NCBI GenBank assembly: GCA_024137785.1
Contig: JAHRHZ010000038.1
Span: 6,693,887-6,757,886, forward strand
DNA from: Ginglymostoma cirratum
Taxonomy: Eukaryota
Direction: 5' to 3'
DNA length: 64,000 nt
Shown here: piece by piece, positions 10,833 to 61,165 of the stretch
Layout: each line of letters opens with the position of its first letter
Numbering within the stretch: position 1 is the stretch's first letter
Translations under genes and position numbers: made by a program
Notes under the pieces: model-generated
Told to the model about the DNA's origin: nothing
The model's input: only the letters and a program-made list of their open reading frames with translations
Databases searched by the model: none

Positions 10833-11004
10833 AGAGATAGCAAGAACTGCAGATGCTGGAGTCAGAGATAACATAGTGTGGAGCTGGAGGAACACAGCAG
10901 GCCAGGCAACATCAGAGGAGCAGGAAAGTTGACGTTTTGAGAAGGGTCCCAACCCGAAACGTCAACTTTCCTGCTCCTCTGATGCTGCCTGGCTTGCTGT
11001 GTTC
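10833..11004. mobile_element. Fold-back Penelope pLTR insertion with partial hammerhead motif
   Basis: About 58-bp inverted arms around GAAGGGTCCCAACCCGAAACGTC. TSD CTGCACAATGT(T/C)ATTC at 10817-10832 and 11005-11020. Confidence 0.88.
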
Positions 11005-11094
11005 CTGCACAATGTCATTCGCAAGTATTAGTTTCACACTGACTCTTCCATTCTCAAATCATTTGACTTGTTTTGAAAAAAAAAAGCTCACTTT

Positions 11095-11406
11095 ATAGAA
11101 TCCCTACAGTGTGGAAACAGGCCTTTGGCCCAGCAAGTCCACACTGACCCTCGGAGCATCCCACACAGACCCATTCCCCTATAACCGACCTAATCTACAC
11201 ATCCCTGAAAACTATGGGCAATTTAGCATGGCCAATCCACCTAACCTACACATCTTTGGACTGTGGGAGGAAACCAGAGCACCTGGAGGAAACCCACGCA
11301 GACACCAGGAGAATGTGCAAACTGCACACAGACAGTCACCCGAGGGTGGAATCGAACCTGGGCCCCTGGCGCTGTGAGGCAGAAGTGCTCGCTACTGAAC
11401 CACCGT
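11095..11406 (-). mobile_element. HE1 SINE (elasmobranch tRNA-derived V-SINE), full length
   Basis: Minus-strand tRNA-like head with B box GGTTCGATTCC, central domain GGATTGGCCATGCTAAATTGCCC, and tail CTGTAGGGATTCTAT. Confidence 0.92.
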
Positions 11407-11612
11407 AATGGATCAAGATATTAACAGACTGGGTTTTAAACAATCCCATACCTACAACCCATGTCTAAATTATACTTGAATTATTTCACATTAAAATCTA
11501 TTTTTTCAACCAATGACATATCAAATTCATAAGGCAAATTCACCAATAGAATCCTTCCTGTTAAGCCCACATTTGAGTAAAGCTTTGATTGGTGAAAAAG
11601 CTACAATATTGT

Positions 11613-11812
11613 AAAGGTAAAGTCACCGTAGTCCTACACTGTCATTAGTGAAAGACAACTGAAGTGATTTAACATGAGGGCACTACATTTCAGGCGAAGG
11701 GGTAAGGTTTAGAAGGAGAGTTCTTCATGGTAACCTCAGCTAGTGCAAGAATTGAATCCACGCTGTTAGTGTCACTCTGTATTACAAACCAGACATCTAG
11801 CCAACTGAGCTA
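11613..11812 (-). mobile_element. tRNA-derived SINE of a different family
   Basis: Minus strand has A box TAGCTCAGTTGG, B-box-like GGATTCAATTC, and a CTTTACCTTTAC repeat tail. Confidence 0.75.
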
Positions 11813-13989
11813 CAACTTCAGTGATTACCCCAACACTATTTTGCTCCTTTTGAGCATGTCTTCCTATTGGAAGTGCAAAATTTGCAAATATTTCTCCATT
11901 ATAAGAAGTCCTCATATGAAAAAAAGCATTGTAAACAGAGGCCTTAAAATTACCATGTGTGTTATAAACATGCAGCTCTCAATACTTTTTTTTACATTAG
12001 GTCTCTGTTATAACCCCCTTCAAAATAAATGAGTTAAGATCTCAGACTCACCAGTGAGCCAATTCAAATAAACTCATCAAGTATTAGTAGTTTAGTATCC
12101 CGTAGATTTTTTTCATGATTATGTTGTTAATAACTATCTTGTATAATAATAAACTTTTATTCCATGAACATTGCATTAGAATGCTTGTTAAAAACCTTCT
12201 TTTACAAACTTACATTAAATTCTTAATCCAAGTCCTTGATTATTATCTGATTGTTCAAACATTACTGCATACAAGCTACCAATAAAATAAACTATTATCA
12301 TGAGATTTGTTGCAGATCTTGTGTTACCACATACTTTCAAATTAACTTTGCAATATTATAAAAATCATCAGTATAAATTTCATTTTATGACAATCATGTT
12401 ATCAAAGACATGTCTAAGTATTACGTATGTAAAAAGGAGTAAGAGAAATATGTAAGCATTACATAATCCATATAGTATTACTTTGGTACTTTATGGTAAG
12501 TAATGTAATGGCTCAGTGTATTTCACAAAACTTCAAATACCATGAATGACACTCTTTGAAAGAGTCATCCTTCTCTCGACCACCATGCAGCAGCATATGG
12601 TAGGATCTTTTAGGTGCACAGGCTAACAGATATGGCCTTGAGATCCTGGTGGAAGATGACCAGAGCATATCTTGTGCCCTCTGCTCCTCTCCCTAGCTTC
12701 TTGTTTTCCACCAGCTTTCACATCCAGATCAAGAGGCAGCCCTAGCAAGATGCCAATGATCAAACACTTCATTTGTCCTTGTGTCTAAGAATGTACAGTA
12801 CCTCAGCACCTTTCCATTTTCGATTAACTCCTCAGAGAATTTCAGATTAAGTGTTGTTGAAGTGTCAGCGAAGTCTTTACAAAGTGTTCCACTGTTGCAA
12901 TAATGAAGGTCACAAGATTATTGTATTTTGGTTGTGTCTCTTCCATTTAAGATAAAATGGAGAAATAAAAGAGGTGGTGTGTTGCTCAGAATTCTGTAGT
13001 GCCAAGCCTGCTGGGCTTGCTTGTTAAAAAATTCACATTATGAGGAAGAAAATGCTGGTGTTCACAGCTGTGGATAATGGTAAAAGCAGTTGTGATGACA
13101 ATGGGTTGACTGTTAGTCTTTAAGTCACATAGGGAGCTATTTGGAATGTCAAATTTTATCGTGGTTATATTTTGAACTATCTGTGTACTTCCAAGACAGA
13201 GTTAGGGACCTAGAACATTAACATTTCCAATTTTTACTTGGATACCCCTTTTTCTTTTCTTAGATAGCTTATTGAAATCAAAGATAACTTGCTTTGACGC
13301 AAGTTTGATGAGCTCTTAGATAGCTAATAAGACTAATGTGTGAGCTTTAAACCCTAGGTAGGTTGGGTAGACAGGTTATTTGGAGGTTTGTGGATTCTCC
13401 CTAATGTCTTCTCCTGTGCATATTCTCAACAAAGTCTCTCAGTGTATTTGTGCCTTCACAGATGAGCCTTCTCCAGTTTAGTTGGTTTTGAGCCCGGACT
13501 CCCATCAGTCAGTGGGGATGTATGACCTCTTCAGAAAAGAATTGAGAACATTCCCAAAGCATTCCCACTGATCCCTGGAGTCTCCAGACATGACCAAATT
13601 TTGACCAAGGACTCTGTGCCAGACGCATGACCCTATGGAAATGATCCTAAGTGATTAAGATTGTAGTGCTGGGCAAGTAAGCTTGTGAGAGGATGCTATT
13701 GTTGGAATGACTTTTTGTTGCTATCAGATTTGGAACTTGCATTGACTGAAAACTTCTTAGTGGCTCGAGAGAAAAACAGCAGTCCTACAGCTAGTTGAAG
13801 GCAGTGGTACAGCGTAAAATGTAGGATATAAAGAGCAAATGGCAGGTGAAAAGAAAGCAGGGGATCCAACAGCTTGCAAACACAAATAACATGTGTGGCT
13901 TATTCATTAACAACCATTGAAAAGACCATTTTGAAGGACCTTTCAGTTGAGTCTCTCTTGAACTTTAATATCCTAAACTTCCTTTCTCG

Positions 13990-15270
13990 GTACCCTGTGT
14001 GGGTCAGTCTTTACTTACCTCACCCAGAATGAGGCTGTAGAAACCAGTTAGTAACTGATAGACAGCTTGCTTTTGAAGAAGATGGAATCCCTGCTGAAAC
14101 TCTGAAGAATACGCTTCTGGCATTGGCTGCACAATCTCGTATCCTTCATTTGGGATGAAGACTATGCCAGGGGACTTCAGGGAAGCTATGATCTTGACTG
14201 CATTGAAGGTGGGAGAACAAGTCTTATTGTAGTAATGATGGAGGAGGCTGCCTGCTCTCTGCCACATTGAAGATCATCTCAAGGATCCTTCTCAATTGCC
14301 ACCTCCGAATGGCTGAGGAACTCCTCCAGAGTCACAGTCTGCTTTTTGTCCGTCGAGAGGCACCAAAGACATGCTCTTCATTGACTGACAAATTCAAGAA
14401 AAGTGCAACGAACAACACCAACCAGTGTGCATGCCCTTTCTCAACCTCACAAATGCTGTGGCACAGTTAACCATGAAAGCTTATACAGTATGCTCTTTGG
14501 ATTTGGCTGCAATATTTGTCACCATTATCAACCTACACCATGATGACATAAAAACTGTGATCCTCTCCAAGGGATTGCAACAAATATGATGACCTTAAAG
14601 ACTGGGCTAAAATAAGGCAATGTCATTGCACCAATTCTGTTCTTCATTTTCATTGCGGCAATGCAACACTGCATCTCAGCTCCAGCAAGTTAGCCGCAGG
14701 CCTGGAGATAACATACATAATAGACAGAAAACTGTTCAACCCATGTCACTTTCAATCCATGTCATCTTCAACCCCAAAACCAAAACCATCCACTCTCAGT
14801 CATAGCTTCAGTTTGCAGCTGAGTTTGTATGCGGCCTCACTTAGAAACTCCAGGTCACTGGGGGTTGACCTGTTCTCCAAAGCACATGAGAAAATGGGCA
14901 TTCCCCTAAACATTCAGGGAATGAAGGCCATCTTTCAGTCATGTTCTGCAGCACAATGACAACCTCACCTCCCACAAAATTAAAATCAACAGCAAACTCC
15001 TAGAAAATATGGACAATTTGCTGTACCTTTGAAGCTTCCCCTCAATAAAGGAAAACAGATGACAAAATTCATCATTGTCATTGATGTTCCAGTTCAGTCT
15101 TAAACCAACTTTGGAAGAGAATATCTGAAAACCATTATTTCAAACTTGTAACTAAAGTGATGGTTTATCCCAATGTAGACAAGCTGAAGCAGGCACCTCA
15201 AAGCACTGACGAACTGCCACTTGAAAACAACGTCCATGTGATTCATGTTACTATGGAGATGAACTTTGAA
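13990..15270 (+). mobile_element. Heavily decayed RTE-clade LINE RT region
   Basis: Remnants of FGC..FV..I..LHDD (about 14500), G.KQG.VIAP.LF (about 14605), LQFA (about 14805) and LNI..K in the expected order, with many frameshifts. Confidence 0.7.
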
Positions 15271-15309
15271 AGGGGGAAAAGTCCATAAAAAGCAATTATA
15301 ATTTTGGGT

Positions 15310-15491
15310 TAACAAGGTGTAGAGCTGGATGAACACAGCAGGCCAAGCAGCATCAGAGGAGCAGGAAGGCTGACGTTTCGGGCCTAGACCCTTCTTCAGA
15401 AAAGCTGAGGATTTAGGCCCGAAACGTCATGTTTTCCTGCTCCTATGATGCTGCTTGACCTGCTGTGTTCATCCAGCCCCACGCTTGTTAT
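15310..15491. mobile_element. Two head-to-head Penelope pLTR copies
   Basis: Left copy (minus strand) has an intact hammerhead core at 15372-15399. Right copy (plus strand) is flanked by CTGAGGATT at 15405-15413 and 15492-15500. Confidence 0.88.
15372..15399 (-). ncRNA. Minimal type I hammerhead ribozyme motif
   Basis: Reverse complement is CTGAAGA A GGGTCTAGGCCC GAAA CG TC: both core boxes, a pairable stem II and a GUC triplet. Stem I is weak. Confidence 0.7.
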
Positions 15492-15589
15492 CTGAGGATT
15501 GTTACTCTTTTTCAAATTAAAATGATAAAAATTTTCATAAACTCTCCGTCCATCTCTCTCTCCCTCTCCCTCTCTTTCTCTGCCTTTTA

Positions 15590-16480
15590 ACAGTCCCTTT
15601 GGATCAAGGATGACTTTCTTCCTCTCCAGTGTTGAGGTTCCTGTGGTGACTAGCTATCTAATACTGGATGTGAAAACCCTGCAACAAGTTGGGCACATGT
15701 TTGCTGACGTGGGTGGTTGGGATGCTTGACTCTCCAAATTCTCCTATCCCTGTTTGCATTTCACCTTCACCTTGGTCAATCTTTTAGAGACGTTTAAACT
15801 GGTTTGCTCCTTCACAGATGCCTTGTCTGCAGTTCGGAAAATCTCGGGCTAAAGTCGGGATAGTGCATCTTTTTCTGTGAGACTTTAATGATATCCATCA
15901 AGCATTTCCCCTGCCCTCTGGTAACTGCTTGCCGTAATAAAAGTCTGAGTACAGAATTTGCGAAAGTCTTGTATCAGGCATGCCTGACCTCGTGCTCCGG
16001 TTTCCTCTCACAGTCCAAAGATGTGCAAGCTGGGTGGATTGCTAAATTGCCCGTAGTGTTCAGGGATGTGTAGATTAGATGGGTTATAGGGGGATGGGTC
16101 AGTGTGGACTTGTTGGCCTGAAGGGCCTGTTTTCACACTGTAGGGATTCTATGAAATCTTGATACTGGGGATGTTGGCCTGAAAGAAGACACTGATATTG
16201 GAGTCCCTGTTCTCCTGGTGAATTTGCAAGATTTTACAAAGACACTACTAGTGATATTTCTCAAGAGTTTTGGGATGTATTCTGTACATTGCCCATGCCT
16301 CCAACATAAAAAGGAGGAATGGTAACATTGTTTCCTTGCAGACCCTGAGCTTGGTGTCGGGCTTGGGGTTTTTGTCATTGAACTCTGTGTTCGTCTGACA
16401 ATTGAAGGCTATGGTGGCATGCTGAATGCCATGTTGAACTTCATTGATGTTTGCCCTTCCTGTGGGAACTTCCTCTCAGC
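15590..16480 (-). mobile_element. RTE-clade LINE 3' end interrupted by an HE1 SINE
   Basis: Minus strand gives EAWAMY, LEKYH, KILQIH and QANIPSI, typical of the RTE C-terminal region. Confidence 0.75.
15991..16154 (+). mobile_element. 5'-truncated HE1 SINE
   Basis: CAGTCCAAAGATGTGCA...GCTAAATTGCCC...CTGTAGGGATTCTATGA matches the full copies. Confidence 0.88.
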
Positions 16481-20442: not shown

Positions 20443-20530
20443 TTCTGATAGAAGGTCACTCACCCGAAATGTTAATTCTGTTTCTTTTCTCATTGAGATT
20501 ACTTGAGCTGCTGAGCAACTACAACTTTTT
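20443..20530 (+). mobile_element. Old Penelope pLTR fragment with degenerate hammerhead motif
   Basis: CTGATAGA AGGTCACTCACCC GAAATGTTA at 20445-20474, followed by TTCTGTTTC...CTGCTGAG as in the copies at 31880 and 55670. Confidence 0.65.
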
Positions 20531-20814
20531 TTTAACTGTCAAATCTTTTCAGTCTAAGTTCCACAATGCACATATTGATCAATTCTAGGAAGGAGGAGAA
20601 TAGGTGGGGGTGGAATGCAAGTTGAATAAACCAAATGTTAAACATAATTCAAACTGTAACAACTTGTTATGTTATTTTCAGTTTCAAATGAATATAATGA
20701 ATCATAAAAGATTAAGCTCATTTTCCAGTAACAATTGGCCTACATTATTGCATGCTCTTCAACTGGAGATGTTCATTTCTCTACCTGTTACCCTTCTCTT
20801 TTTCTACCTATCAG

Positions 20815-21018: not shown

Positions 21019-21019
21019 T

Positions 21020-22349: not shown

Positions 22350-22722
22350 GAACTCTGGCACCGTGCCCACATGGCACTCTGCCCCCGACCTAGCTGGCAC
22401 CTTACTTACCTGAAACCCTATCATTGCTCATCTGGCATCCTATCCCTGTCACCTTATCTCCTCCCCAACTTTCCCAACTAGTACTTTATTTTTCAGTTGG
22501 CAGTCTATGTAATTGGCACCCTACCACCTACTCAAATGGCATTTTACCCATGGCACCCTATAATCTACACAGCTGGCACCCTACTTCTCTGGCAAACTAC
22601 TCACTTGGCATACTGTGCATTTGGTAACCTACCCCTACACATCTGGCATCCTACCCCTGGTACCCGATACATTCCTCAGCTGGCAGCCTTCTCATCTGGC
22701 AGCCTACCCTTCTGGCATACTA
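22350..22722 (+). repeat. Degenerate minisatellite with core CTGGCA(C/T)CCTAC
   Basis: Roughly 15-20 TGGCA/TGGTA cores spaced about 14-25 nt apart in C-rich sequence. Confidence 0.7.
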
Positions 22723-24492: not shown

Positions 24493-24557
24493 ATCTTCCT
24501 ATATTTCGCGCTCTTTTTAAATAATTTATTCCTTTATAGATGGTTTCTATTTTGCAG

Positions 24558-24625: not shown

Positions 24626-25733
24626 GTAAGCAAAAGCCCCAGGAATAGTTATTTTCTCCCTGTAGAGATCCACCTCTACTTGACACCTAATCCTCCTCAT
24701 TATTGAGGTTGAGGCTAAGGCTGAGACTCGAAACTAGCAGTTTGGAGAATCATAAAAATACATTTATCACCCACCACGTAGCCCATTAAACAGTTATCAG
24801 ATTTAAAAAGCAGAGCTTTTGTTAAATGCTTCATATGGTCTGCTGTTAGGTTGGTGATCTAGCGTGTATTGAGTGATGATGAAGTTTATGCACAGTTAGC
24901 ACTCAACATATTACAACAAAAGATTGAATTGCTTTACACAGTCTAGGGTTAATATATATTGGCAGAGGTTACTTTACATACAGAACAAGGTTCAAACATT
25001 TAACTTTCGAGGAATTTCATATTTTTGGAAGATGTGATCCTCGATTGAACTGCCCATATTAGACTCAATAGTAACTATAGAAATAATTATCGAAATAGTC
25101 TTTGTAACAATCTTTCCTCTTGTACTTTAGGCTTTTACATGCCTATCTAACGATCCATCACCCATATGGAAACATCTTAGAAGTGTTTCATCTCTATACC
25201 TTTTTTTTGTGTGAATCCATACTGGCTCTTTGCTGTTTTGTTCACATCGAGATGTCAAGATTGTTTTGCTGGGTTTATTATGTGTCTGCTGTCATACCGT
25301 TTGCTTTCCACTTCATTAAACCTGTAGTAGAGTCTGATAGAGTTGTTGCAGGTGGGGTAAGGAGCTGGGTACTCTGCAGGACATCAGCTCAATAGTTCAG
25401 TACAATGTGTGTATCCCACTTTCAAGTCAGCGTTTGTTTAATCTAAAAGGTTTAACTCTTCAGTGGGCAACTTCAGTGGCAGATATTTTTGCACTACATT
25501 TCAAAATATAGAATACAGATAATAGGGATGAGGATCTGCTTAAAAGAAATGCTAAACAATAAAAGGGTGTGTATGTGCGGATTTTATTGCTGTTGTTTGA
25601 TGTTATTTTAAAATTAATAGTAGACATGTAGTTTCCAATTAATATCTGCAGAGCAGATCTCAAAGCCATTTCTCAGGGAAGGTTCCAGTTATGACACTAT
25701 TACTGACACCAACTCAAGATCAACCTATATCTG

Positions 25734-26177
25734 AGATAACAAGGTGCAGAGCTGGATGAACACAGCAGGCCAAGCAGCATCAGAGGAGCAGGAAAGCTGA
25801 CGTTTTGGGCCTAGATCCTTCTTCAGAAATGGGGGAGGGGAAGGGGGTTCTGAAATAAATAGGGAGAGAGGGGGAGGCGGATAGAAGATGGATAGAGGAG
25901 AGGATAGGTGGAGAGGAGACAGACAGGTCAAAGAAGCGGGGATGGAGCCAGTAAAGGTGAGCGTAGATGGGGAGTTAGGGAGGATGGACAGGTCAAGGGG
26001 GCGGGATGAGGCTAGTAGGTAGGAGATGGGGGTGCGGCTTGGGGTGGGCGGAGGTGATAGCTGGGAGGAGGGGATAGGTGGGAGAAAGGACAGGTTAGGG
26101 AGGCGGGGACAAGCTGGGCTGGTTTTGGGATGCAGTTGGGGGAGGGGGGGAGGGGAGATTTTGAATCCTACTATCTG
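25734..26177 (-). mobile_element. Young Penelope pLTR (long form) with hammerhead motif
   Basis: Close match to 42032-42460. Core at 25799-25826 has GAAA changed to AAAA. TSD TCAACCTATATCTG at 25720-25733 and 26178-26191. Confidence 0.92.
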
Positions 26178-29697: not shown

Positions 29698-30025
29698 TCA
29701 TAGAATCCCTACAGTGTGGAAACAGGCCATTTGGCCCAACAAGTCCACACTGCCCCTCCGAAGAGCACCCCACCCAGACCCATTCCGCTACCCCTGCATT
29801 TCCCCATGTCTAACTCAAACAACACTGGACACTATGGGCAATTTAGCATGGCCAATCCACCTAGCCTGCACATCTTTTGGACTGTGGGAGGAAGCTGCAG
29901 CACCTGGAGGAAACCCATGCAGACACGGGAGAATGTGCAAACTCCACACAGGCAGTCGCCCGAGGGTGGAATTGAATCCGGGTCCCTGGCGCTGTGAGGC
30001 AACAGTGCTAACCACTCAGCCACCG
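29698..30025 (-). mobile_element. HE1 SINE, full length
   Basis: Colinear with 11095-11406. Head ACGGTGGCTGAGTGGTTAGCACT and B box GGATTCAATTCC. Confidence 0.92.
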
Positions 30026-31744: not shown

Positions 31745-33290
31745 TGGAACATAGGAACACTCGTAGGCCATTCATGCTTTGCTCCATCATTCTAGATCAT
31801 GGCTGATTATTTACCTCACCACCATTTTCCCATGCTAACTCCATGTCCTTTGATATCATAACTAAGTAGAAATCCATCAGGAATTTAAGGAAGCATCACT
31901 CGACCTGAAACATTAACTCTGATTTCTCTCTACAGATGCTGCCAGACCTGCTGAGCTTTTCCAGCAATTTCTGTTTTGGTTATGTTAGCAATCATCAGCC
32001 TCTCTCTTGAACTTATTCAGAAGAGCTTCCACCCTCTGGTAGAGGGATTTTGAATTCACCATCTTCTGGATGAAGAGATTCCTCCTCATCTTAGTCTGAA
32101 ATCACTTGTGTTTTATTCAGAAAAGATAATCCGTGTCCTAGATTCCTTAGGCAGGGAATACATCCCTTCTGCTCCATCCTGTCTATTTCTTTAAGAATTT
32201 TGTAAGTTTCTGTTATCAAATCCCACCATTTGAGGAATCAGTCTGATGAACCTCCACTGCATTCCTCTATGGCAAGCCTATCTTTCCATTGGTAAAAGAA
32301 CTGGAACTGTACAAAGACTCAAGATGTACTCTTGCCAGTGTTCTGTACTTCTTTGCTCTTTTTTTCTTTGTTCCTGCACTCTCATACTCTTGGGATAAAG
32401 GCTAATGTATCATTTGCCTCCCAAACTGCTTGCTGCAACTGTCTGCTAGCTTCCAGTGATTTGTGAACAAAGTTCCTTTTGGATATCAGTACTTTCCAAA
32501 CTCTCACCATTTAAGAAATAGCCTGCATGTCCATTCTTCCTATTAAAGTGGATAACCTCACATTATGTTCCAGCTGTCAAGGTCTTGTCCACTCAACTAG
32601 ACTATCCAAATCTCCCAAAGCCCCCTTGTCTTCACAACTCTCATTTTAACCAAGTTTTGTATCATCCACAAACTTGTGAAATATTACAATTCATCTCCAA
32701 ATCAAATCATTGATATTTATCATAATCTTTTGAGCCCCAATCACTGGCCCTTGCAGTACTTCTTAAACATAGCCTGCCAACCTGAGCATTACCCATTTCT
32801 TCCTACTTCAATCTTCAATTCTTGCTAAGATATTACTCCAATCCAAATACTTTAGGCTTATTGACCAACTTCCTGTATGGCTTTTATTAACACCTTCTGA
32901 ACATCCAAATCTATCACATCCATTGGTTTTCCTTATTGACTCTGCTAGTAACATTATCAAAAATCTCCAACAGGTTTGAAAAACTTCCCTGTCAAATACC
33001 CACGTATCATTTTCAACACATCGAGTCATCACATTCTTATAATAGATTGTAGAATTTTCCCTACTGTTGCCATGGGGCTAACCTGCCTGTAGTTTCCCGT
33101 TTTCTCTCTCCCATCTTTCTTAAACAGTAGGGTTACATTTGTACACTTATAACCTGTAGGGAGCATTGCAGAATTAACTGAAATTTGAAAGATGATCACT
33201 AATGGATCCGTCATCTCTGTAGCCACCTTGTTTAGTACTTTAGGGTGAAGGCCATCGGGTCCTAATGATTTGTGAACTTTTAGTTGCGTC
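31745..33290 (-). mobile_element. Decayed CR1 LINE (RT to 3' end)
   Basis: ORF 33029..33226 PLVIIFQ...NVTLLFKKDGREKTGNYRQVS, KFVDDTK near 32660, and a CR1 tail GAACATAGGAAC at 31747. Confidence 0.9.
31880..31990 (+). mobile_element. Penelope pLTR fragment nested in CR1
   Basis: GACCTGAAACATTAACTCTG...CAGATGCTGCCAGACCTGCTGAG. Imperfect TSD AATC(C)ATCAG. Confidence 0.8.
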
Positions 33291-38885: not shown

Positions 38886-38994
38886 CAGACTTCGACATTT
38901 TCTGATGAAGGGTCTAGGCCCAAAACGTCAAGCTTTCCTGCTCCTATGATGGTGCTTGGCCTGCTGTGTTCATCCAGCTCCACACCTTGTTATC
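38886..38994 (+). mobile_element. Short Penelope pLTR insertion with hammerhead motif
   Basis: CTGATGA AGGGTCTAGGCCC AAAA CGTC at 38902-38929. TSD TCCTGAGACTTCC at 38873-38885 and 38995-39007. Confidence 0.9.
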
Positions 38995-41900
38995 TCCTGA
39001 GACTTCCTCCTCCTCCAGGACACCACAGTATCAGTTGGCCCAGCTTGCCTATAGGCCAGGGAATGCTACAGTTTGTTGAACACCCAGTGAGGTAGATCTT
39101 GACTTTGCGTGAATGTGTAAAATGGATATTAGCAATTTGACAGTTCGTTTGGCATCTCTCCCAATTGAAAGTCCATCAAATTACAATAACAATTTCTGAA
39201 AGTGGTTTTAACTCCCTGTTTGCTGGCAAAATGAAACAACATCACCAAGCTAAGTATGGAAAAATTTTTTTTTTGTCACCTACTATTTCCGGCATCATTC
39301 CTTCAAAAGACAATGATCTTTGCCAATATACCTACAACAAGCAATATTCCACAGAAATAAAGGGGACAACTTCTTCAGCAGTTTCTCTTGATTTCTCTTT
39401 TATGCTTTTGTTTACGGTAGAACTGAACAATTGTCTGATTATGGTAAATGCGAAATACTGCAAATGCTGGAAATCTAAAATGAAAGCACAAAGTGCCGGA
39501 GAAACCCAGCAGAACTGGGAGCATTATTGGACAGATAAACAGAATTCACATTTCAAGTCCAGTATGACTCATCTTCAGAACTGAAAGCAGGTGAAAAATG
39601 GTGGTTTTAGTACTGTTGACCGAGGGGTAGGAGGAATGAATGGGACTAAATTAATTAAAAGGGAGTGTTAATGATGGTAAAGGAGAGATAAAGATGTAAA
39701 ATGTGTGTAAATGAAGTAGAGATCCATGCTCAGTGCCTTGTGCTATCACATGGACACTCTCAAGCTGTCACTCTGTCAGCACTGCCCCACACTATCTCAA
39801 AGCTGTCCTGGTTCCCAGTTCCATTTCATTTTTTGCCTCGTTCGAAGTTTTAACGAGAAACTTTTTTTCTTCCTTTCAGGTGTTAAAGAATGCAAGCTCC
39901 AAAATCTCTTAGGTAGTAATGCCCCTCATTCCTCCAATTCCATTCCTTCTTCTAATCCCATCCCTTTCTGTGAATTCAGTGTATCTTCTGACCTTTCCCC
40001 TCTCTGATGCTGAATGATCTGTGCTCAGAAAATGACTCAGTTTTATCCTTTTACACCCCCATAACAAATTCAATGACATGATGTTGAACTCTTTTTCTAT
40101 CGCCTTCACCTCCCTGCCTGCGTCTTTGGACAAGAATTCTGTCTCTGCTACCTTGACCCTTTCATCCATCTCCATTACTCTCCCTCTGCTTGCACCCCTC
40201 CCCCTGGCCTTTTGCCTCTACTTGGTCTCTTCTTCGAGAGCTGCTGGCATGATAGCAGCCATCTCAATTTCTCCGCTTCCCTCACCTGCTTTAACTTGTC
40301 TCCCTCTGAATTTGATGTATTCCATTCTCTCGGCTATAACCATGACTTTAACCTGCTGCTAAGGGTGGTGCTGTTGTCAGCTGGTTTGCTGATCTCTACC
40401 TTCCAGAGGCTGAACAACAAATCTCAGAAACTTCCTCCATGTCCCCCTGGATCATCACCCCACCACTGAACTTTAGGATTGTCACTGACCTCATCTCCTC
40501 TGGAGATCTCTCCACAATATCCCACCCATATTCGCCCAATAAAACCCCGTCCCCTTTGAATGCCTTCTCAAAATCCACAAACAGAATTGTCCTGGTTGTC
40601 TTAGCCCAGCTGGACTTGTCTCTTCATATTTTGACTCTATTCTATTCCCCCTTATTCAGTCTATTCTCACATACTTTTATGATTCTTCTGACATTTTATG
40701 TCGATTCCACGATTTCCAGTTTACTGACCCTAGCTGCCTTCACTTCACCATCACAATGGTCTGAAGGCTCTCGCATTCTTCCTTTGAAAAGTGGCCTGAA
40801 AAATTCCCAACCACTACCTCCCTCCTTCACTTGGCTGAGCTCATTCTCAATTTGAACAAATTTTCCATTAACTCCTCTCACTTTCTCCAGGTCAATAGTG
40901 TGGTAAAGGGTACGCAACAGACCCCAGCGATTTCCCCTCTCTATGTGGGCTATGTGGAACATTTCTTGTTCCAGTCCTACTCAGGCCCTCACTAACAGCT
41001 CTTTCTCCAAAACATTGATGTTTTCGGTGTTGCTTTTGTCTGGTATTGGAAAGATTAAGCAATTTTGCTCAGATTTCCGTACTTTTCTCACCTTCGCCTG
41101 GTCTATTTCTGACTTTTCCCTTCTCTTCCTTGACTTTACTGTTTTCATTTATGGCAATAGTCTGTCACCCAATATCCACTACAAACCCACTGACTGCACA
41201 GTTACCCTGACCACATTTCTCCATACCTGACTTCTCACAAGGATTTAATTCCCTTTTCCCAGTTTCTTCGTTTCCATCGCATCTGTTCCGATAATGACAC
41301 TTTCCGCTGGATTGTCTCCAAAGTGTTCTCCTTTATCTTTAACCAAGGTTTTCACCTCCCCTCTCCCCTCACAGCACCCTCTCCCCCACTCACCGTGGCT
41401 CATAGAGTGCTCAACTGTGTCTGAGTCAATTCTCACACTTCTGTCCTTACCCCTTACTCTCCTTCTCAGAACAAAAGGGTTCCCCTTGTCCTCACATTTC
41501 ACCCCACCATTCCACCATCCCATGCATTCACAGGAGGTGAAATGCTTGCCCATTAACCTCCTCCTTTCTCAGTGCCCAAAGTCTCAACCACACCTTCCAG
41601 GTGAAGCAGCATTTTACTTGTACTTCTTTCAATCCAGTCTACAGCATTTGCTGCTCACAATGTGATCTCTTTTATATTGGTAAGACCAAACACAGACTGG
41701 ATGACTACTTTGCAGAGCACCTCCACGCTATCTGTACAAATGACCCTAACTTTCTTAACTTGGCATTTCAATAAACCCCTTGCTGTCATGCCAACATTTC
41801 CATCTTTTACCTTGGCTTCCACAATGTTCCACTGAAGCACAATGCAAGATCGAGGAACAACACCCCATTTTCGATTGATGCACCCATGCGGTCTCTAGGA

Positions 41901-42098
41901 CTCAATATTGAGTTCCACACTTTCAGAGAATGACTCTGTTCTCAATTTTTCTTACATTTTTCACGCTCCCCACTTGTTTTTTTTTGACTTTGCTCTCAGT
42001 AGAACGGACCCATTTTCTCCATTTTGCGTTAAGAGATAACAAGGTGTAGAGCTGGATGAACACAGCAGGCCAAGCAGCATCAGAGGAGCAGGAAGGCT

Positions 42099-42126
42099 GA
42101 CGTTTCGGGCCTAGACCCTTCTTCAG
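42099..42126 (-). ncRNA. Minimal type I hammerhead ribozyme motif
   Basis: Identical 28-mer to 15372-15399: CTGAAGAAGGGTCTAGGCCCGAAACGTC. Confidence 0.7.
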
Positions 42127-42477
42127 AAATGGGGGAGGGGAAGGGGCTTCTGAAATAAATAGGTAGAGAGGGGAGGCGGATAGAAGATGGATAGAGGAGA
42201 AGATAGGCGGAGAGGAGACAGACAGGTCAAAGAGGCGGGGATGGAACCAGTAAAGGTGAGTGTAGGTGGGGAGGTAGGGAGGAGATAGGTCAGTCCAGGG
42301 AGGACGGACAGGTCGAGGGCGCGGGATGAGGTTGGTAGGTAGGAGATGGGGTTGGGGCTTGAGGTGGGAGGAGGGGATAGGTGAGAGGAAGGACAGGTTA
42401 GGGAGGCGGGGACGAGCTGGGCTGGTTTTGGGATGCGGTAGGGGGAGGGGAGATTTTTAAGCTTGTGAAATCCACAT

Positions 42478-42555
42478 TTGTCGGCTGTGGGCGGAGTTGC
42501 ATCGGCAGTGGTGGGCTTGTCGGCTGTGGGTGGAGTTGCGTTGGCGGTGGTGGGC
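42478..42555. repeat. Tandem 39-bp GC-rich repeat, two copies
   Basis: TTGTCGGCTGTGGGCGGAGTTGCATCGGCAGTGGTGGGC and TTGTCGGCTGTGGGTGGAGTTGCGTTGGCGGTGGTGGGC. Confidence 0.95.
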
Positions 42556-44409
42556 ATTTTGCTTCTTAATTTACACCTATTGTACATATTTATATGCCTT
42601 TATCACCATTAGCAGTCTCCTTGTCTTTTGTTCTTGGTATCCTTACAATCTGTTCCACTTGCACCTCCTCCCTCTCTGTCAACAGAATAAAAAAAATTTT
42701 CCAGCTCCTTTCAGTTCCAAAGAAGAGTCATGCTGAACTTGAAATATTAACTTTGCTTTTCTCTCCACAGACGTTACCAGATCCATTGAGTTTCTGCAGC
42801 AATTTCTGTTTTCATGTCGGTGTTTTTAATTGAAAAACACATTTCACATATTTAAAACAAAACTAGAATTGTAATATTTACAATGAAACAATAGAGACAA
42901 TGGATAATTTGTATATAGGTGCGATTAATGCATTAGATTTAACAATAATCTATTCATACTGCTGTTTTGGTTTAAATCAATACATCTTTGTATTTGTTAT
43001 GTACTCTGAATGAAATGCTCATTCAAATACAATTCAATAAAAATAGCGAAGGACAGTTCCAAATAATCAACTTGAAATGTGAATTTCAGCTATAGCTCTG
43101 GGATATTAGAACATGTATTAAACAGTGGTCGAGGTGATCTTCTTCAAATATGTATGTAATGTTACTACCTGTGTGCACTGGTATTCATGTCACTGTGCTT
43201 TACAAACAGGAGTTTTTGGTAACCAAAACTTTTTTCATTCCTTTAAAATTTAAAAGTGGGATTGATATGTACATATAGAGCAGGCATTCAGTTTCCTTTT
43301 GCATCACATTAATAATTGTTAGTTTTTCTCCCTGATAAGCTGGTGTTTTGTAGAACTAGAAAGAGTTAGGGTGAATACTTTTAACCAACCCTTATCTTCT
43401 GACTTCATCTGAACCCTTGTAAATTGGTGGGTCTGAAAGGATATAAAATATACAGTTCAGTGCTTTTTGGAGATATTTTACAACAGAGAATAAGATACAG
43501 TATGTTGCAAATGTTATGGGCTACTGAAGGAGTAAGTTTAACAGTGCATCTGAGAGCCTTAACAATTTTACAGAGTCATTTTTACTTACTTCACATAACA
43601 TGTCTTTTGAAAATTCCTCATGCTTTTGTATAGATCTGTTTGATCATATTGCCTTCAGTTTTTAATCCATTTTTAAAAATCTCTTCAATGTTTCTGGTCC
43701 ATGAGGTTCATTCACCATATTGCAAATTCCTTCATCTGGGCAGGGATTCTCTGTGACTGTCATCGATGCTACCACTTGATTGATTAAAAAGCAACCTGAG
43801 GGGGTTAAGTGTCTTATCTTTCTTATTTTTGATTCCACTCCAAAATATCCACCCAGAGTAAGTCCCTATTGCTTCAACAATTCGCTGATAAAATTCACTC
43901 TCAATAATCACAGGTAACCTTGAAAGTTAGGAAACACTTCAAATCAGGGTCATGACAGTCTTGTTAAAATTTAAGTACTATATCCATCTCGGGTGACCAA
44001 CTTCTGATATCTGGAACCTGGGTTTCTTACTTCCTTTTCCAAATTCACTTGTAGACAGAGTCTGGGAATGTAATATTATTTGGGAGCTGGTGCATGTGCA
44101 TTTAACTTCAAGACAAATTATAAAATTAGGGCATGAGTTGTCAATATACTGCTAGTGTGCTGCAGCTGCATTGCTGTAATGTCATTTTGAATTTAGTCTT
44201 TAGAGGTGAATTGAAGGTTTCCTGATGGGCATTGTTTTACCTTTTATTTGGACCTAGAAATAAGTGACCAGATCCATTTCTGTTATCTTGATTTTAGCAA
44301 CTTCAAGAAACCATTAAAAGGTACTTGGATAAAACACTTTAAGTGTCATAACATTCAAGGCTAGTGAGGGAAAGTGTAGGCAGTAGTGTATTTTTGGTGG
44401 TACAGACTT

Positions 44410-45310
44410 AGTTTCAAATTTGTCCATGCTGACCAAATATCGTATATAAATCTAGTCCCATTTGCCAGCATTTGGCCCATATCTCTCTAAATCTTTCCTA
44501 TTCATATACCCATTCAGATACCTTTTAAATGTTGTAGTCATTCCAGCCTCCACCACTTCCCCTGGCAGCTCCAAACATGCACCACTCTCTGTGTGAAAAA
44601 GTTGCCCCTTAGGTCCCTTTTAAATCTTTCCCCTCTCATCTTAAACCTATGCTCTCTAATTTTGGACTCCCTTATCCTGGGGAAAAGACTTTGTCTATTT
44701 GCCCTATCCATGCCACTCGTGATTTTATAAACCTCTATGAGGTCATCCCACAGCCCCCAACGCTCCATGGAAGATAGCCCTACTCTATTCAACCTCTCTC
44801 TATAGCTCAAACCCTCCAAACCTGGCACCATCCTCATAAATCTTTTCTGAACTCTTTCTAGTTTCATCACATTCTTCCTATAGGAGGGAGACCAGAATTG
44901 TATGTAATACTCCAAAAGTGGCTGAACTAATGTCCTGTACAGCCGCAATATGACCACCCAACTCCTATACTCAATGAACTGACCAATAAAGACAAGCATA
45001 CCAAACACCTTCTTCACTATCCTATCTACCTGTGACTCCACTCTCAAGGAACTATGAACCAGCACCCCAAGGTCTCTTTGTTCAGAAACAGTCCCCAGGA
45101 CCTTACCATTTACACTATAAGTCCTGCCCCAATTTGCCTTTCTGAAATGCAGCACCTCACATTTATTTAAATTAAACTCCATCTGCCACTCCTTGGCCCG
45201 TTGGCCCATCTGATCAAGATCCCATTGTACTTTGAGGTAACCTTCTTTGCTGTCCACGACACCTCTAATTTTAGTGTCATCTGCAAACTTACTAACCATA
45301 CCTCTCGTGT
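44410..45310 (-). mobile_element. Young 5'-truncated CR1 LINE with uninterrupted RT C-terminal frame
   Basis: ORF 44538..45332 (264 aa): SKFADDTK, WQMEFNLNKCEVLHF, LEYYIQFWSP, LERVQKRF, RGNFFTQRVV. Confidence 0.96.
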
Positions 45311-45899
45311 TTGATGGACTGAGGGGCCTCATATGTTCTGTATGATTCAGTGAAACTCTACTGGCTAATTTTCTGCGCTAATATAAATGTGAACCTTTAC
45401 CATAACTTAGTGAAGAGAATTTTTCATACCGATTTCTTTTAAAAGTAGAGTTGCTGTATGGGTTTGAAAAGAACACTGTTTCACCAACATGTTTAGAAAT
45501 GTTACTTATCTTTCTAATTTTAGCAGTTTGTCTATTGGGAATAGCTGGTATTTCTGTTTGTTGTGTTTCCAGATAGCACTTTTGAAGGCTGTGTAAATGC
45601 AATTGAGTAATTGACTGGGGGTATCTTAGGTTTTGGTACCATCTGTGCTGTGAAAGCTCAGCTAGGAGGGTGCTGAAATTGCCATTTGGGACGAGGAGAT
45701 GAGCCAGCAACAACATTTTAAAAGTGTTTCTCATGTAAGATCACCTCCGGGGTAGTGTGATATTTACAAAGTTAGAAGGAAACGAATTTAGTGTGGAAGA
45801 TCAAGTGCACAATGGAAGAGATTTTTTAGCAGACTTATAATAGCAGGCAGAAAGCAAAATGGAGTGTTTTTGAGAGAAAATCCTAGAAAGCTGGATATA

Positions 45900-50099: not shown

Positions 50100-51780
50100 G
50101 TTTCTAAATTCCAAACTGCAGTAACTGTTCCAGAATCTAGGGAATTTTGGAAAATTATAGTATACATACCCATTGTATCAAGCTATCTCTTTTGGAACTC
50201 TAGAATTTAGGCCTTGAGAGATTTTGTCAGATTGTAGTCATTTGAGTTTAACCAGTAATTTTTTCTCTGCTGATGTTAATTACATTAATTTTGACATTCT
50301 TTTTAGTCCTTAGGTTATTCCTGGTATTCAACTTGACTGTGTCTTCACAGTAAAAGTCACAAAATATTTGTTTAAAGTCTCTGCTATTTCCTCATTTTCT
50401 ACAATGATTTCTCCTGTATTTGCTGCTAACAAATCAATATTTACTTTGTTACCCTCTGCCTTTTTATATAAGTGCCAATTTTTTTTTACAATCTTCTTTC
50501 TTATTTCCCAGCAAGCTTTAACTCTTATGTGCTTCCACGACAGGAAGCTGTCATATAAGCATTGAATAAACTCATTATCAAGACCACCTTTATCAGTTTG
50601 ATTGGTCCAGAGACAAAAAAAAACTGTAGATGCTAGAATCCAATGTAGATAAACAGGAGGCTGGAAGAACACAGCAATCCAGGCAGCATCTGCAGGAAAG
50701 GAGATGTCGATGTTTTGGGTATTACCTGAAATGTTGACTTCTCCTTTCCTCCGTATGCTGCCTGGCTTGCTGTGTTCTTCCAGCCTCCTGATTGGTCCAG
50801 TTGACATGTAGATTACAGCCCTCCACAACTGCTGCATTTCTTTTGATACAAACTTAAATAGTTTCTTGATTAGTACTCTTGGTTAGATATCACTTGGGGA
50901 GTGCATAAACTACCACCATAACATTTCTAACCATTGCTATTCACAATTTCCACCCCTACTCAATCTACCTCATCAAATCCAAGGTCCTTTCTCACAAATG
51001 ACATCTCTTGATATCAGGGTTACCACCCACATGTACCAGCCCCTTCCATTTGGCCTGTCTCACGACTTCATCTATCCTTTTGATGGTGCTTAACGCACCC
51101 ACATGAAGTATCTTTTAATATTTAGTCGAGACCTTGGTCTGTCGCGCACTGCTACAGTTAAATTCTTTTCCTTCCTGTCCCACTCAGCTTGTTGTTATCC
51201 ACATAGATATGCCTTTCTATTGCCTCTGCTTTTATTTTGGATTTCTAAATATCCCTTCACCTAAACCCTTTGTTAGTTAAATGACATTTCCTTTGCTCTG
51301 ACCATATTTGCTGGGCTCTTTTGATTGTATGCATTGTCTGTTCCTGTTTCATTCTGATTACTATTACCCACATTGCTAGTCTATATTATTTCCTTGTCCT
51401 TTCTCAACTTTCCAAATCTCACTCACCCCTTAGACTATTTAGCTTTAAACCCACTCTGCAAGCTTGGTTATATGACCTTCTAAAACACAGTTAAGATTAA
51501 GCATGGTTAAGGTGAAAACCATCCTAATGATACAGCTCCCTTTTGCCTTAGTACAGCTGGCAAAACCTCACGGATTGACCCCATTTCTCCAACACCAATC
51601 TAAAGCCATGCATTCAACTCTCTAACTTTGTTTACCTTATGCCAGTTTTACTTGTGCTTCTGATAGTAATCCAGACATTACCTTTGTGCTGCTGCTTTAA
51701 TTTAGACTGTAGCTGCTCATTTCCCTCAGTAGGACATGTTTCTTAGTCCTATCTATGTTGTTGGTACCTGAGTAACTCTC
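50100..51780 (-). mobile_element. Decayed CR1 LINE, 5' half (ORF1 esterase-like, endonuclease, linker)
   Basis: EEIAETLNKYFV (ORF 50328..50837), VVVYALPS (GVxYRPP-like, about 50900), and LKQQHKGNVWIT near 51680, which frameshifts into a KVxSGLL motif like that of the CR1 ORF1 esterase. Confidence 0.75.
50611..50788. mobile_element. Fold-back Penelope pLTR nested in CR1
   Basis: Inverted arms centred on GGGTATTACCT. TSD TGATTGGTCCAG at 50599-50610 and 50789-50800. Confidence 0.9.
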
Positions 51781-52329: not shown

Positions 52330-52810
52330 TGTGTTATATTAATGGGCTAGTAATCCAGAAAGTCCCTGTCCCAAAGTGACAGCAATATGTTTTTCCCTTT
52401 TACCCAGTCACGTGTTCCAACACCTGGGGTGCTGTTGGAAAGTCTAGCATTTATTACCTAATTACTTAAGTCTTTGAATTCAGCTAATTAAGTAAAAGGT
52501 GAGTTTGGAATAAAGCACTGGTATCAGTATTGTTGACTATGACGTTAGCAGACTATCATAAAAACTGAACTTGTTCACTGATGGTAGGAACTGCCGATGC
52601 TGGAGTATCTGAGATAACAAGGTGTAGAGCTGGATGAACACAGCAGGCCAAACAGCATCAGAGGAGCAGGAAGGCTGATGTTTCGGGTCTGGATCCTTCT
52701 TCAGAAAATGGTTCACTAATGCTCTTTATGAAGAGAAATCTGTTATCCTTTCTCAAACTAGCCCACATGTGACACAACAATTGTCATTAACTGCCCTCTG
52801 AAATGGCGTA
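52330..52810 (+). mobile_element. Probable Meta-domain SINE split by a Penelope insertion
   Basis: CTAGTAATCCAG head, GTTCACT|AATGCTCTTTATGAAGAGAAATCTG domain, and TAACTGCCCTCTGAAATGGC. Confidence 0.65.
52584..52710 (-). mobile_element. Penelope pLTR insertion with hammerhead motif
   Basis: Core at 52677-52704 (reverse complement CTGAAGAAGGATCCAGACCCGAAACATC). TSD GTTCACT(G/A)ATG at 52573-52583 and 52711-52721. Confidence 0.88.
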
Positions 52811-52899
52811 ACAGTTTGCAGCAAAGCCACAACAAAAAAGAACAATGAGAATCAAACTGGATGGAAGAGGATATAAGTGACTCACCAAGAATCACCAAA

Positions 52900-53125
52900 G
52901 TCCTCTACAATCTACATGACACAAGTCACAAATGTGATGGAAATGCTTGTACTTCCTTGGAGTACAGCTCCAATAGCATTCAAGAAATTTGAGGCATTCC
53001 AGGATAAAGCAGTCCGTTTGACTACAATGTTCTAAGGTAGCAGTTCACCACCGTCTTTGAGGGCATTTGGAGAAGGGCAACTAATGCAGGCCTTATCAGC
53101 GATGCCCACATTGCATGAATGAATT
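52900..53125 (+). mobile_element. CR1-type 3' end with internal deletion
   Basis: Matches 8230-8330 and the tail GATGCCCACATTGCATGAATGAA. Confidence 0.7.
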
Positions 53126-54159: not shown

Positions 54160-54202
54160 GTGGATTCTTCCTATTTGAGGTGGATTCTTCCTATTTGAGG
54201 TG
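54160..54202. repeat. Perfect 20-bp tandem duplication
   Basis: GTGGATTCTTCCTATTTGAG twice, then GTG. Confidence 0.95.
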
Positions 54203-55674: not shown

Positions 55675-55855
55675 TAAAAATACAAAAGAAAGTGCTGAAG
55701 AAACACAGCAGATCTGGTAGCATCTGTGGACAGAATTTCCACTTGACTCCGAGCATTAACTTTGTTTATGTCCCTACAGATGCTGCCAGACCTGCTGAGT
55801 TTCTCCAGCAATTTCTGTTTTTGTTTCAGATCTCCAGCATCCACAGTTCTTTTTT
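55675..55855. mobile_element. Older fold-back Penelope pLTR
   Basis: CAGCAGATCTGGTAGCATCTGTGG pairs imperfectly with CTACAGATGCTGCCAGACCTGCTG. Confidence 0.8.
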
Positions 55856-58718: not shown

Positions 58719-58771
58719 CAAGTTTCTATTACTGTTTCTTATGCTGGGTCAGAACTGAATTACCAAGCAAG
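58719..58771 (+). other. Candidate small exon (53 nt)
   Basis: Long pyrimidine tract ending TGTCAAAG, and an AAG|GTAAGG donor. Two frames are open. Confidence 0.2.
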
Positions 58772-59814
58772 GTAAGGTTTACATATTACATATAACAAGG
58801 CGAAATATCAATAAAGAGATTCTTTAAACAAATGTCACCTGCTTGTGAACACAATTTCATCATACCTCAATTAATATTCCACCGTCTGCAGTGAACTTGC
58901 AGTCCCTTTGTAATGTTAAAGAGAGAAGATGCACTTTGGTCATGCCTGAAAGAGAATCAAGCTTCCTGCTTCAGATATCAGCAGTTGGTCACCTTTTATT
59001 GTGTCAGAAAATGGTTTTGTACTCATTAGAAACAAAACAGAGCTGATTATAAAGGTGGTGCTTGATATTGACCTGTTCAGCACTGGCTTTGATATTACCC
59101 ACGTTCTTTATTTGTCATCCTGGATTCCAAAATGTGTTTTAATCCATGTAGAAAGAGATGTACAGAATTCCAAGTAAACTTTTGGGTTGTTAAAAATTAC
59201 ATTAACCAAGTCTGTTTTTAAATGAGTCATAACACTTTTGCAGATCATTGCTTTATTTTTAAAAAATGCAGTAGTTTTATTTGTTAAATATTGAAGTGGC
59301 TTGAATTCTACTGGGATACAGTTTTCATGAAAGCTAGTTTTCTGATGTGGAATGCTGCAAGAATACATATTCCAGTTTTTTTTAGTAATTATCCAAAAAT
59401 AATTCGTTGTCTGTTGCAGAACAGGGAAGACTGGGTGATCTAATGGGTGGATTTGAACTGCATGTTTCAATGTCTCTGTTTATGGACTCACAGACAGGAA
59501 TGATACAATTGAGCCTTCTTGGCACTGTACTGAGACTGACTAAAAAACAATCTGTTTAAAGAGATTGAGGAGAAATTTTTAACCTAACTCTTTCTTTAGG
59601 CAACTGACTGGATTGAGGGCATGACTGAATTTATACCCCTCCCAGTTATACTGTCCACTGAAGTCAATGGAGATAGCTGATAGTGCCACCAACAACTAAT
59701 CTAATTTAACCAGTCCAGCTCATAATGTGACTCATTTGTACATTTGAGAAGCATGATGCATTGTCTTATGGAGGGATTCAATCTCTGTAAATGAAAGGAG
59801 TATGATGAAGTTTG

Positions 59815-59898
59815 AGAGGTAGTAGGAACTGCAGATGCTGGAGAATCTGAGATACCAAGGTGTAGAGCTGGATGAACACAGCAGGCCAAGCAGCATCA
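59815..59898 (-). mobile_element. Penelope pLTR 3' fragment
   Basis: GTAGGAACTGCAGATGCTGGAGAATCTGAGATACCAAGGTGTAGAGCTGG matches the copy at 52584. Confidence 0.88.
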
Positions 59899-60317
59899 CC
59901 TTTTTTGAATTACTTGGAAGCGTAGGTTGCCTACAGTTCTCTATTTTCTTCTGCCTGTGGTAATACCTTGGCCAATTCGAGTAACTTGCCAACTAATCAG
60001 CACCTTCTCTCTTGTATAAATTATTGTGATTACCTTGACATTATAAATTGTTATGTTTGGCCTGATGAGTGCAGCACAAAATGCTTCGTCAACAATTCCT
60101 CTCTTCAGCAATATTCAGGTAAAGGTCTGGTGGGGTCAAGACCAATGACATATCTGGCCATGTGGGTTTCCTACTTGGCTATGAATTAAAATTATCCCTA
60201 TTTTATCTACCTTTGCCTGAAAGAAAGTCTTTTGAGGTCAAATATGTTTTAAAATCTTAATTTAAGTCCAACTTACTATATACTATATACTTCTGTTTGT
60301 CTACCACAGAATCATAG

Positions 60318-61165
60318 AGTTGCGAACAAAGGAGTGGTGAAGGGAATGGTCCTTGTGGAAGGCAGAGAGGGGTGGTGAGTGGAAGGTAACCACCCTAACC
60401 CCTCCTGGTACCTCTCCTGTAACCATAAAAGATGCAACACCTGCCCACACACCACCTCCCTCACCTCCATCCTGGGCCCTAAACAGTCCTTCCAGCTGAG
60501 ACAGAGCTTCACCTGCATTTCCTTCAACCTAGTCTGTTGCAACCGGTGCTCCTGATGTGGTCTTCTCTACATCAATGAGACGAAACATAGACGAGGTGAC
60601 CATTTCGTCTTGCATCTTCCCCTGGCCTGTGACGGCCAGCCTAACTTCCCGGTCACTGTCCATTTCAATTCACCGCCCCATCCCCACTCCCCATCTGACG
60701 TGTCCATCCTCAGCCTCCTCCAGTGTTGCAGTGACTCAGAACACAAATTTGAAGAACAACACCTTATCTTCTGCCTGGGCACCCTACAGCCCAGAGGATT
60801 CAACATTGAGTTCTCCAATTTCAAATAACCTTCCCACCCATCCCCTGGCTCCCTTTCCAGCCCCATCTCCTTCATTCCATTCCACTTTCTGACCCTCCCT
60901 TCCAGCCACCAACCGGATTCATCCCTTCCATCGACCAACCAGGTCATACCTACTACCATGGTCCACCTATCACCCCCATTCTACTATCCACCTCCGTGCC
61001 TCTCTTTATTTGCAGCTCCCCCTACCCCACATCCAGTCTTGAAGAAGGGTAATACCCGAACCGTTGGTTTCTCCTTTCCTCCAGATGCTGCCAGGCTTGC
61101 TGTGTTCTTCTAGCCTCTTGTTTGTCTACTTTGGATTCCAACATCTGCAGCTGTTTTGTCTCTAA
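60318..61165 (+). mobile_element. 5'-truncated Penelope-like element: Cys-rich linker, GIY-YIG endonuclease and pLTR, with short 5' inversion
   Basis: PGTSPVT/RCNTC, FTCISFNLVCCNRCS*CGLLYINETK, and EEQHLIFCLGTLQPRGFNIEF. Hammerhead-like TTGAAGAAGGGTAATACCCGAACCGTT at 61039-61065. 60318-60386 is an inverted upstream piece. Confidence 0.92.

Follow-up and report, generated by a model that had tools for sequence, protein, structure and literature searches.

What do the hammerhead ribozyme motifs dispersed through shark DNA represent, and do they still cleave RNA? We addressed this question in a stretch of 64,000 nucleotides from Ginglymostoma cirratum (assembly GCA_024137785.1, contig JAHRHZ010000038.1, positions 6,693,887 to 6,757,886 of the forward strand), hereafter the window. 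An original prediction had described about ten minimal motifs, assigned them to Penelope-like elements (PLEs) and regarded them as self-cleaving RNAs. We are nearly certain that they are PLE ends carrying a minimal type I hammerhead. It is also very probable that the elements are of the endonuclease-type (EN+) class, and that what remains of them here is a set of short, mostly broken insertions that are likely inert in place. The motif class itself is already known; the family described here is a cartilaginous-fish example of a hammerhead class described in 2014.

Identification of the repeat

The hammerhead and the tail that follows it form a unit of about 100 nt common to around 15 insertions in the window. 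A profile built from eight named copies matched the whole window 22 times, with 21 matches at E<1e-6, compared with a single match (E 0.75) on the reversed window. A pattern derived from the published consensus matched five times against 0.30 expected, a number reached by none of 100 shuffles; two of these five matches lack stem II. On the basis of these two comparisons, the repeat is real. The eight stretches named previously are correct in coordinates and strand and the motifs themselves are genuine, but the count of about ten was too low for the repeat and too high for intact cores.

The motif agrees with the consensus of metazoan PLE hammerheads (Cervera and de la Pena), which likewise have an extra base after A9, the pair G10.1-C11.1, a loop-less palindromic stem III and a short stem I, and which likewise occur as many dispersed single copies and opposite-strand pairs. 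In the window, the extra base lies between A9 and G10.1, and the adjoining pair is G-C in eight and G-U in four of 13 cases. Family A, the youngest of the three subfamilies (A, B and C), differs from the published motifs in having 2-3 bp in stem I and a 2-nt loop on stem II. The 56-row published alignment holds no cartilaginous fish, and in the two supplementary files searched the terms shark, Callorhinchus and Leucoraja gave no matches. The Rfam search suggested alongside the original prediction detected nothing of the kind: covariance models gave 12 matches at E<=5 on the window and two at E<=10 on 42060-42170, none to a hammerhead family. Minimal forms such as these would be expected to escape Rfam models. 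Rfam matches to microRNAs at 10883-11010 and 50660-50784 were all below the gathering score and were set aside, as they merely reflect fold-back insertions. A search of the window for transfer RNAs found none.

The assignment to PLEs is further supported by remains of open reading frames (ORFs), which at two loci lie upstream of the motif and share its strand (60400-60825 before 61039, and 40352-41930 before 42717). Together with the fit to the consensus, this upholds the earlier assignment to the minimal type I hammerheads of Penelope pseudo-long terminal repeats (pLTRs), and the division into about three subfamilies also stands. The layout is that of an EN+ PLE, namely a single ORF, encoding a reverse transcriptase and then, C-terminally, a GIY-YIG endonuclease, upstream of the pLTR, with inverted or tandem pLTRs, a tail and target-site duplications (TSDs). 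Canonical EN+ insertions likewise combine 5' truncation, an inverted 5' arm, TSDs and palindromes at inverted junctions, as well as an optional 30-40-nt tail, according to the available text of two accounts (Arkhipova 2013, PMC3846280; Craig 2021).

Two elements retain coding remains. The first is a 5'-truncated family B element (60379..61163, plus strand) that comprises the GIY-YIG remains at 60400-60825 with one in-frame stop at 60553, a 3' untranslated region (UTR), a broken hammerhead (61039-61065) and a tail. Its endonuclease piece has 1299 protein relatives at E<=0.001; among eight that were scanned, RVT_1 was found in five and, at the C terminus, a GIY-YIG domain in all eight at E<=0.01. 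The two best named relatives come from a ray and a skate. The ray protein is annotated as a 'mucin-2 isoform' and is apparently a misannotated PLE piece. A Cys-rich linker (C-x4-C-x2-C) at 60418, ahead of the endonuclease, suggests by its sequence a member of the Neptune clade; available descriptions of Neptune and Nematis place such a linker before GIY-YIG, as here.

The second is a family C element at 39464-42815 with a textbook layout of inverted 5' arm, truncated ORF and 3' pLTR. The inverted arm (39464..39634, minus strand) carries the hammerhead at 39546-39578, the decayed ORF (40352..41930, plus strand) runs from reverse transcriptase to GIY-YIG with frameshifts and stops, and the 3' pLTR (42664..42815, plus strand) holds a decayed hammerhead near 42717-42747. 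The ORF was recovered by tblastn of reverse transcriptase and GIY-YIG proteins (E to 2e-32); Pfam gave E 0.011 for its GIY-YIG domain, below the cut-off. Word-indexed protein searches found none of 146 and none of 32 candidates, and the PLE ORF pieces in raw form escaped detection by Pfam.

A younger family A end (42033..42450, minus strand) is inserted within this family C element. It consists of about 320 nt of 3' UTR and pLTR, an intact minimal hammerhead (42099..42126, minus strand) and a tail. C3 lies at 42126 and the predicted cut falls between 42099 and 42098. An ATG at 42078..42080 (minus strand), 17 nt after the predicted cut, is the probable ORF start; it is in frame in families A and B and in one family C copy, and would begin a protein with the motif ML-x-x-LL.

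Arrangement and integrity of the copies

Copies in the window are either solitary or head-to-head, with five loci forming head-to-head pairs. No same-strand cores occur in tandem within the 64 kb, where paired arms face opposite ways, and a tandem-repeat scan of the window detected no array of the ~97-nt unit. Flanking repeats of 12-18 nt were found at four of 14 loci tested and one of 11 nt at a further locus; in the background, nine of 400 reached 11 nt and one of 400 reached 12 nt. The stretches near 10940 and 50717, previously listed as partial copies, prove to be the centres of fold-back insertions rather than simply decayed cores. The former (10827..11009) is a head-to-head insertion centred in stem II, with the 5' core absent from both arms and a 16-nt TSD, while the latter (50609..50794) belongs to family B, has its head-to-head arms centred at the loop of stem II and carries a 12-nt TSD.

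Core and stem integrity were assessed in an alignment of 14 arms that excluded tail-only arms and some second arms. Every base of the core CUGANGA...GAAA...UH is kept in three arms (15372, 42099 and 52677), and the rest have one to three changes or are truncated. Two arms, 15372 and 42099, are fully intact in core, stem II and ACGT palindrome; the other 12 are broken or truncated. Hence the core pattern reported for all eight named stretches holds at the three loci given above and fails at 25799, 38902, 39546, 61039 and 20445. The change G12>A affects both 25799 and 38902, the cleavage position of 39546 is occupied by G, C3>T and A15.1>C are found together in 61039, and the core at 20445 is displaced. 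The claim of two copies with identical intact cores was borne out: 15372 and 42099 are identical at 93 of 93 positions across core and tail.

The stems gave a mixed picture. Stem III is the expected ACGT palindrome in six of 14 arms, whereas most of the others differ by a single CpG-type change; most core and stem losses appear to reflect CpG decay. Stem I has 2 bp in four of five family A copies and 3 bp in the fifth, 4 bp in 61039, and 1 bp in two decayed copies. It is weakest in the youngest family, as had been stated. Stem II is paired in 87% of cells, and only one of its four pairs has a two-sided change. This change, from G-C to A-U, is found in three rows (two clear family C copies and one truncated arm) and amounts to about one event between subfamilies. 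Pairs with two-sided change were matched in 313 of 500 shuffles and the cells in 67 of 500; the covariation score was reached in five of 500, a score that relatedness alone can give. The covariation of stem II that formed part of the original prediction rests on about one compensatory event, and its two-sided change does not rise above shuffles.

Probable inactivity of the hammerheads

Do the dispersed copies function as ribozymes, cleaving transcripts of the host or of the element in dimeric form? We consider this unlikely, and hold with high confidence that most copies in the window are inert. In favor of activity are the two intact, identical cores and the existence of head-to-tail unit dimers in contigs of the runs X2, X3 and X15 (the last possibly RNA), which were aligned to 41990-42470; no reads of a fourth run, X23, aligned there. 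In source elements, moreover, N7 has varied while the pairing of stem II was retained: this free core position is one of two variant sites in 42033-42129, compared with 38 upstream, among the 40 of 140 variants listed. This suggests that the motif was kept under selection in the source elements. Against activity in the window, nearly all arms are broken or truncated and none is in tandem.

Folding predictions point the same way. None of nine segments folded better than shuffles, the intact copy included. In the lowest-energy monomer predicted for family A, the core is paired to the cleavage site of the same molecule. As a result of its 2-nt loop, stem II of family A (42107-42118, minus strand) is a self-complementary 12-mer if G-U pairs are counted, which would permit stem II, in place of stem III, to mediate dimerization. 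The best modeled dimer forms in this way and is inactive at -31.6 kcal/mol, as against -13.3 kcal/mol for a hammerhead-compatible dimer without stem I and -1.9 kcal/mol with it; tertiary contacts lie outside this model. Published single minimal PLE motifs did not cleave and dimers cleaved weakly (Cervera and de la Pena), and eight of nine Xenopus dimers failed to cleave. The Anolis PLE motif needed the element's protein to cleave, and the cut was dispensable for insertion, in the available part of that study (PMC11167929). Self-cleaving RNAs scattered through the window, proposed at roughly one per 6 kb, are thus not supported: each copy stands alone or faces another head-to-head, and inactive folds are preferred in the young family.

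A sharp 5' edge at stem I

The position at which family A copies end provides a clue to how they were made. Throughout the contig mapping, counts refer to contigs rather than element copies, and the results cover 18 of 1511 rows of loose ends and 15 of 296 joints. In the contigs of all three runs, family A has a sharp end that lies 3-6 nt upstream of the core and not at the cleavage site. Among the rows listed, loose ends accumulate at 42129, three bases before C3, in 306, 1109 and 80 contigs of X2, X3 and X15, respectively, and also at the tail end (42032-42035). The DNA beyond them is heterogeneous and T-rich (agreement 0.35-0.36). Among the joints listed, head-to-tail joints lead from 42125-42131 back to 42032-42034 in up to 18 contigs, giving a unit of 93-99 nt, and opposite-strand joints have one side at 42127 or 42129. 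The 5' strand of stem I (42127..42130, minus strand) is the start of most short copies, as marked by the pile of loose ends and by the window arms; of the five family A arms in the window that carry a core, three start at -3 to -6 relative to C3. No arm in the window starts at the cleavage site, and on this ground cleaved RNA was rejected as the main template.

A TATA-like sequence, TATTTAT (42155..42161, minus strand), lies 35 nt before C3 and may be a promoter; from it the distance is about 31 nt to the 5' edge and 31 nt to the A in CCATTT, which resembles an initiator. The available text on a rotifer pLTR also notes a TATA box and an initiator (Arkhipova 2013, PMC3846280; Craig 2021 preprint). 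A TATA-like 7-mer occurs 35-38 nt before C3 in both family A and an unrelated PLE family described below, with a chance of about 1.1% per 9-nt range for each family, although the box was noticed post hoc.

This second family was recovered by a pattern scan of metagenome contigs, which returned 29 stretches, none related to the window repeat. Ten belong to one young PLE family at eight distinct loci (L001, L004, L006, L007, L008, L016, L019, L021, L024 and L027). Its hammerhead is cleaner, with 4-bp stems I and II and a UACG loop; it occurs in head-to-head insertions, and endonuclease remains lie upstream of it in L021. The family would hence be a better cleavage substrate than family A. Its 12 mappable arms come from seven loci, and eight of them start at -3 to -9; a locus cut off by the edge of its contig was dropped. 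Two further minimal hammerhead-like motifs with a longer stem II were observed at L002 601-662 and L010 601-661, both on the minus strand. The remaining 17 stretches look like chance and were dropped, and the same scan of viral contigs gave no matches.

A proposed strong-stop model

How could a fixed edge at stem I arise? According to the accessible text of a study on an Anolis PLE (PMC11167929), reverse transcription primes internally in the tail and extends on both nicked target strands, does not need the hammerhead cut, and no RNA reads end at the cut. We tentatively propose a PLE 'strong-stop' complementary DNA (cDNA), a reading that we favor without giving it an even chance. The source RNA would begin at stem I, with the 5' strand of the hammerhead and some 4 nt ahead of the core. 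If so, priming at the first tail, about 100 nt downstream, would yield a run-off cDNA of about 97 nt as copying reaches the 5' end of the RNA. This run-off step on its own is somewhat more credible than the complete proposal, yet still short of probable. Such a cDNA, copied from uncleaved RNA, could integrate alone as a solo unit, meet a cDNA from the other target strand to give a head-to-head insertion, or jump to a second tail to give a head-to-tail arrangement and rebuild the partial tandem, or pLTR, that the element requires. The hammerhead would then belong to the 5' leader that precedes the ATG, and its cutting would be weak and would occur in a dimer or with help from the element's protein, serving as a switch that removes the cap rather than as a tool for excising the template.

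Several observations weigh against this model. The strict TATA-like pattern fits two of four families (A and the metagenome family), whereas the decayed copies of B and C do not match it. Contigs cannot reveal a transcription start, and beyond the rows listed there may be other piles of loose ends, even one at the cut site. Among the inversion joints listed, the one with the best support reaches on its other side to 42094, which is 4 nt beyond the cut. The step in depth at the edge is partly expected, with other subfamilies aligning over the tail only, and in X15 it falls later, at about 42160. The metagenome loci were picked by a pattern that requires one whole core, and four of their eight arms noted above meet at a CAGCTG palindrome, explicable by microhomology. 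Finally, the geometry is not universal, since transcription of Penelope in D. virilis starts 125 nt before C3 and its intron ends 5 nt before C3.

The main rival to run-off is that the edge is made at joining. In that case RNA would start further upstream, and the cDNA would undergo trimming and then anneal, either to AT-rich target DNA or to itself, wherever a T-run or palindrome is first met, which happens to be in stem I or II. We regard this as a serious possibility that nonetheless falls well short of likely. It would account for the junctions at 10940 and 50717 being centered on stem II and for the arms of L019 and L027 meeting at a 6-nt palindrome. The PLE enzyme prefers ATT in AT-rich DNA, in the sections of PMC11167929 available, and microhomology joins are described for PLEs in the literature at hand. 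It is less easily reconciled with L007, where both arms start at -4/-5 with filler between them, with the 52677 solo unit, which starts at -6 straight after its flanking repeat, or with the TATA-like box that two unrelated families have at the distance expected.

A lesser rival, which we judge very unlikely, is that the edge is a splice acceptor, as in Penelope of D. virilis, whose intron extends to the 5' end of helix I, and that short copies derive from spliced RNA. Families B and C and the metagenome family do have pyrimidines followed by AG just before the core. In contrast, family A, the family mapped genome-wide, lacks AG there, its loose ends share no common first exon (agreement 0.35), and metagenome copies retain the AG.

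It is more improbable still that the ~97-nt unit represents a non-autonomous retrozyme whose mobile form is an RNA that has been cleaved and circularized. Head-to-tail repeats of 93-99 nt in contigs would fit, as would the retrozyme-like PLE derivatives reported in one chondrichthyan in partial text. The repeat junction, however, connects the -3 edge with the end of the tail and shifts by several nucleotides between cases, whereas a circle made by the ribozyme would join seamlessly at the cut. In addition, there is no unit tandem in the window, and the core is minimal and not the canonical type with loop contacts. The available text on non-LTR retrozymes (PMC7229834; bioRxiv 10.64898/2026.07.22.740005) likewise describes short PLE-derived hammerhead units as monomers and dimers, one chondrichthyan included, in which the 2026 preprint counts hammerhead repeats. 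The present units differ in that they measure ~97 nt, have a minimal motif, are solo for the most part and retain their link to copies with an ORF.

A close comparison is Anolis Poseidon PAc (Frangieh 2024, PMC11167929). In the available parts of that work, 3' ends likewise lie at one or two fixed tail positions, the hammerhead is beside the ORF start and copies read through the cut site; the ATG lies at stem II, compared with a probable ATG downstream of the cut here, and 5' ends and RNA start were not mapped. A fixed 5' edge at stem I is not mentioned in the accessible descriptions of canonical EN+ PLEs (PMC3846280; Craig 2021), and our literature search, to which most subscription journals, Repbase and Dfam were out of scope, found no report of this family or of such an edge. 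The available literature states as open how PLE pLTRs are regenerated and what the PLE hammerhead does. Both questions become directly testable with a family of very high copy number whose 5' and 3' edges are fixed, and its copies are potentially a fossil record of where copying stops.

Other copies and neighboring repeats

The remaining insertions illustrate the same range of forms. A family A arm with the intact hammerhead 15372-15399 (15310..15403, minus strand) begins 4 nt before C3 and faces an inverted partner (15405..15496, plus strand) that starts inside stem II. The family A end at 25728..26147 (minus strand, core 25799-25826) retains upstream pLTR. Family A solo units are found at 38896..38996 (plus strand, core 38902-38929), with a 13-nt flanking direct repeat, and at 52584..52710 (minus strand, core 52677-52704), with a long tail and an 11-nt flanking repeat containing one mismatch. 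Older copies comprise a solo unit at 20443..20539 (plus strand, core 20445-20474), an arm without the 5' core at 31888..31981 (plus strand), identified by profile match and alignment, and a head-to-head insertion at 55684..55840 with only the 3' half of the motif, identified by profile match. A tail-only family A stump at 59811..59898 (minus strand, profile match) starts at the ATG. A tail-only head-to-head insertion at 1850..2131, with a TSD of at least 14 nt, spans an assembly gap. At 1849-2042, a gap of 100 N separates two identical 47-nt pieces of this palindromic insertion; it is probably an assembly artifact of the fold-back, and the locus may thus have been counted twice.

Other repeats are also present in the window. 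Two decayed reverse transcriptase pieces of long interspersed nuclear elements (LINEs) at 44423-45377 and 6334-7178, presumably CR1-like, are 68% alike and give a weak RVT_1 match (E 0.015). Decayed reading frames at 14561-15250, which resemble an RTE-type LINE, have the palindrome at 15310-15496 at their edge. Three copies of a repeat like a short interspersed nuclear element (SINE) lie at 11095-11406, 15992-16158 and 29700-30026, and presumably resemble a known shark SINE. Short tandem arrays occur at 22513-22721 (period 107/16) and 42478-42555 (period 39/19).

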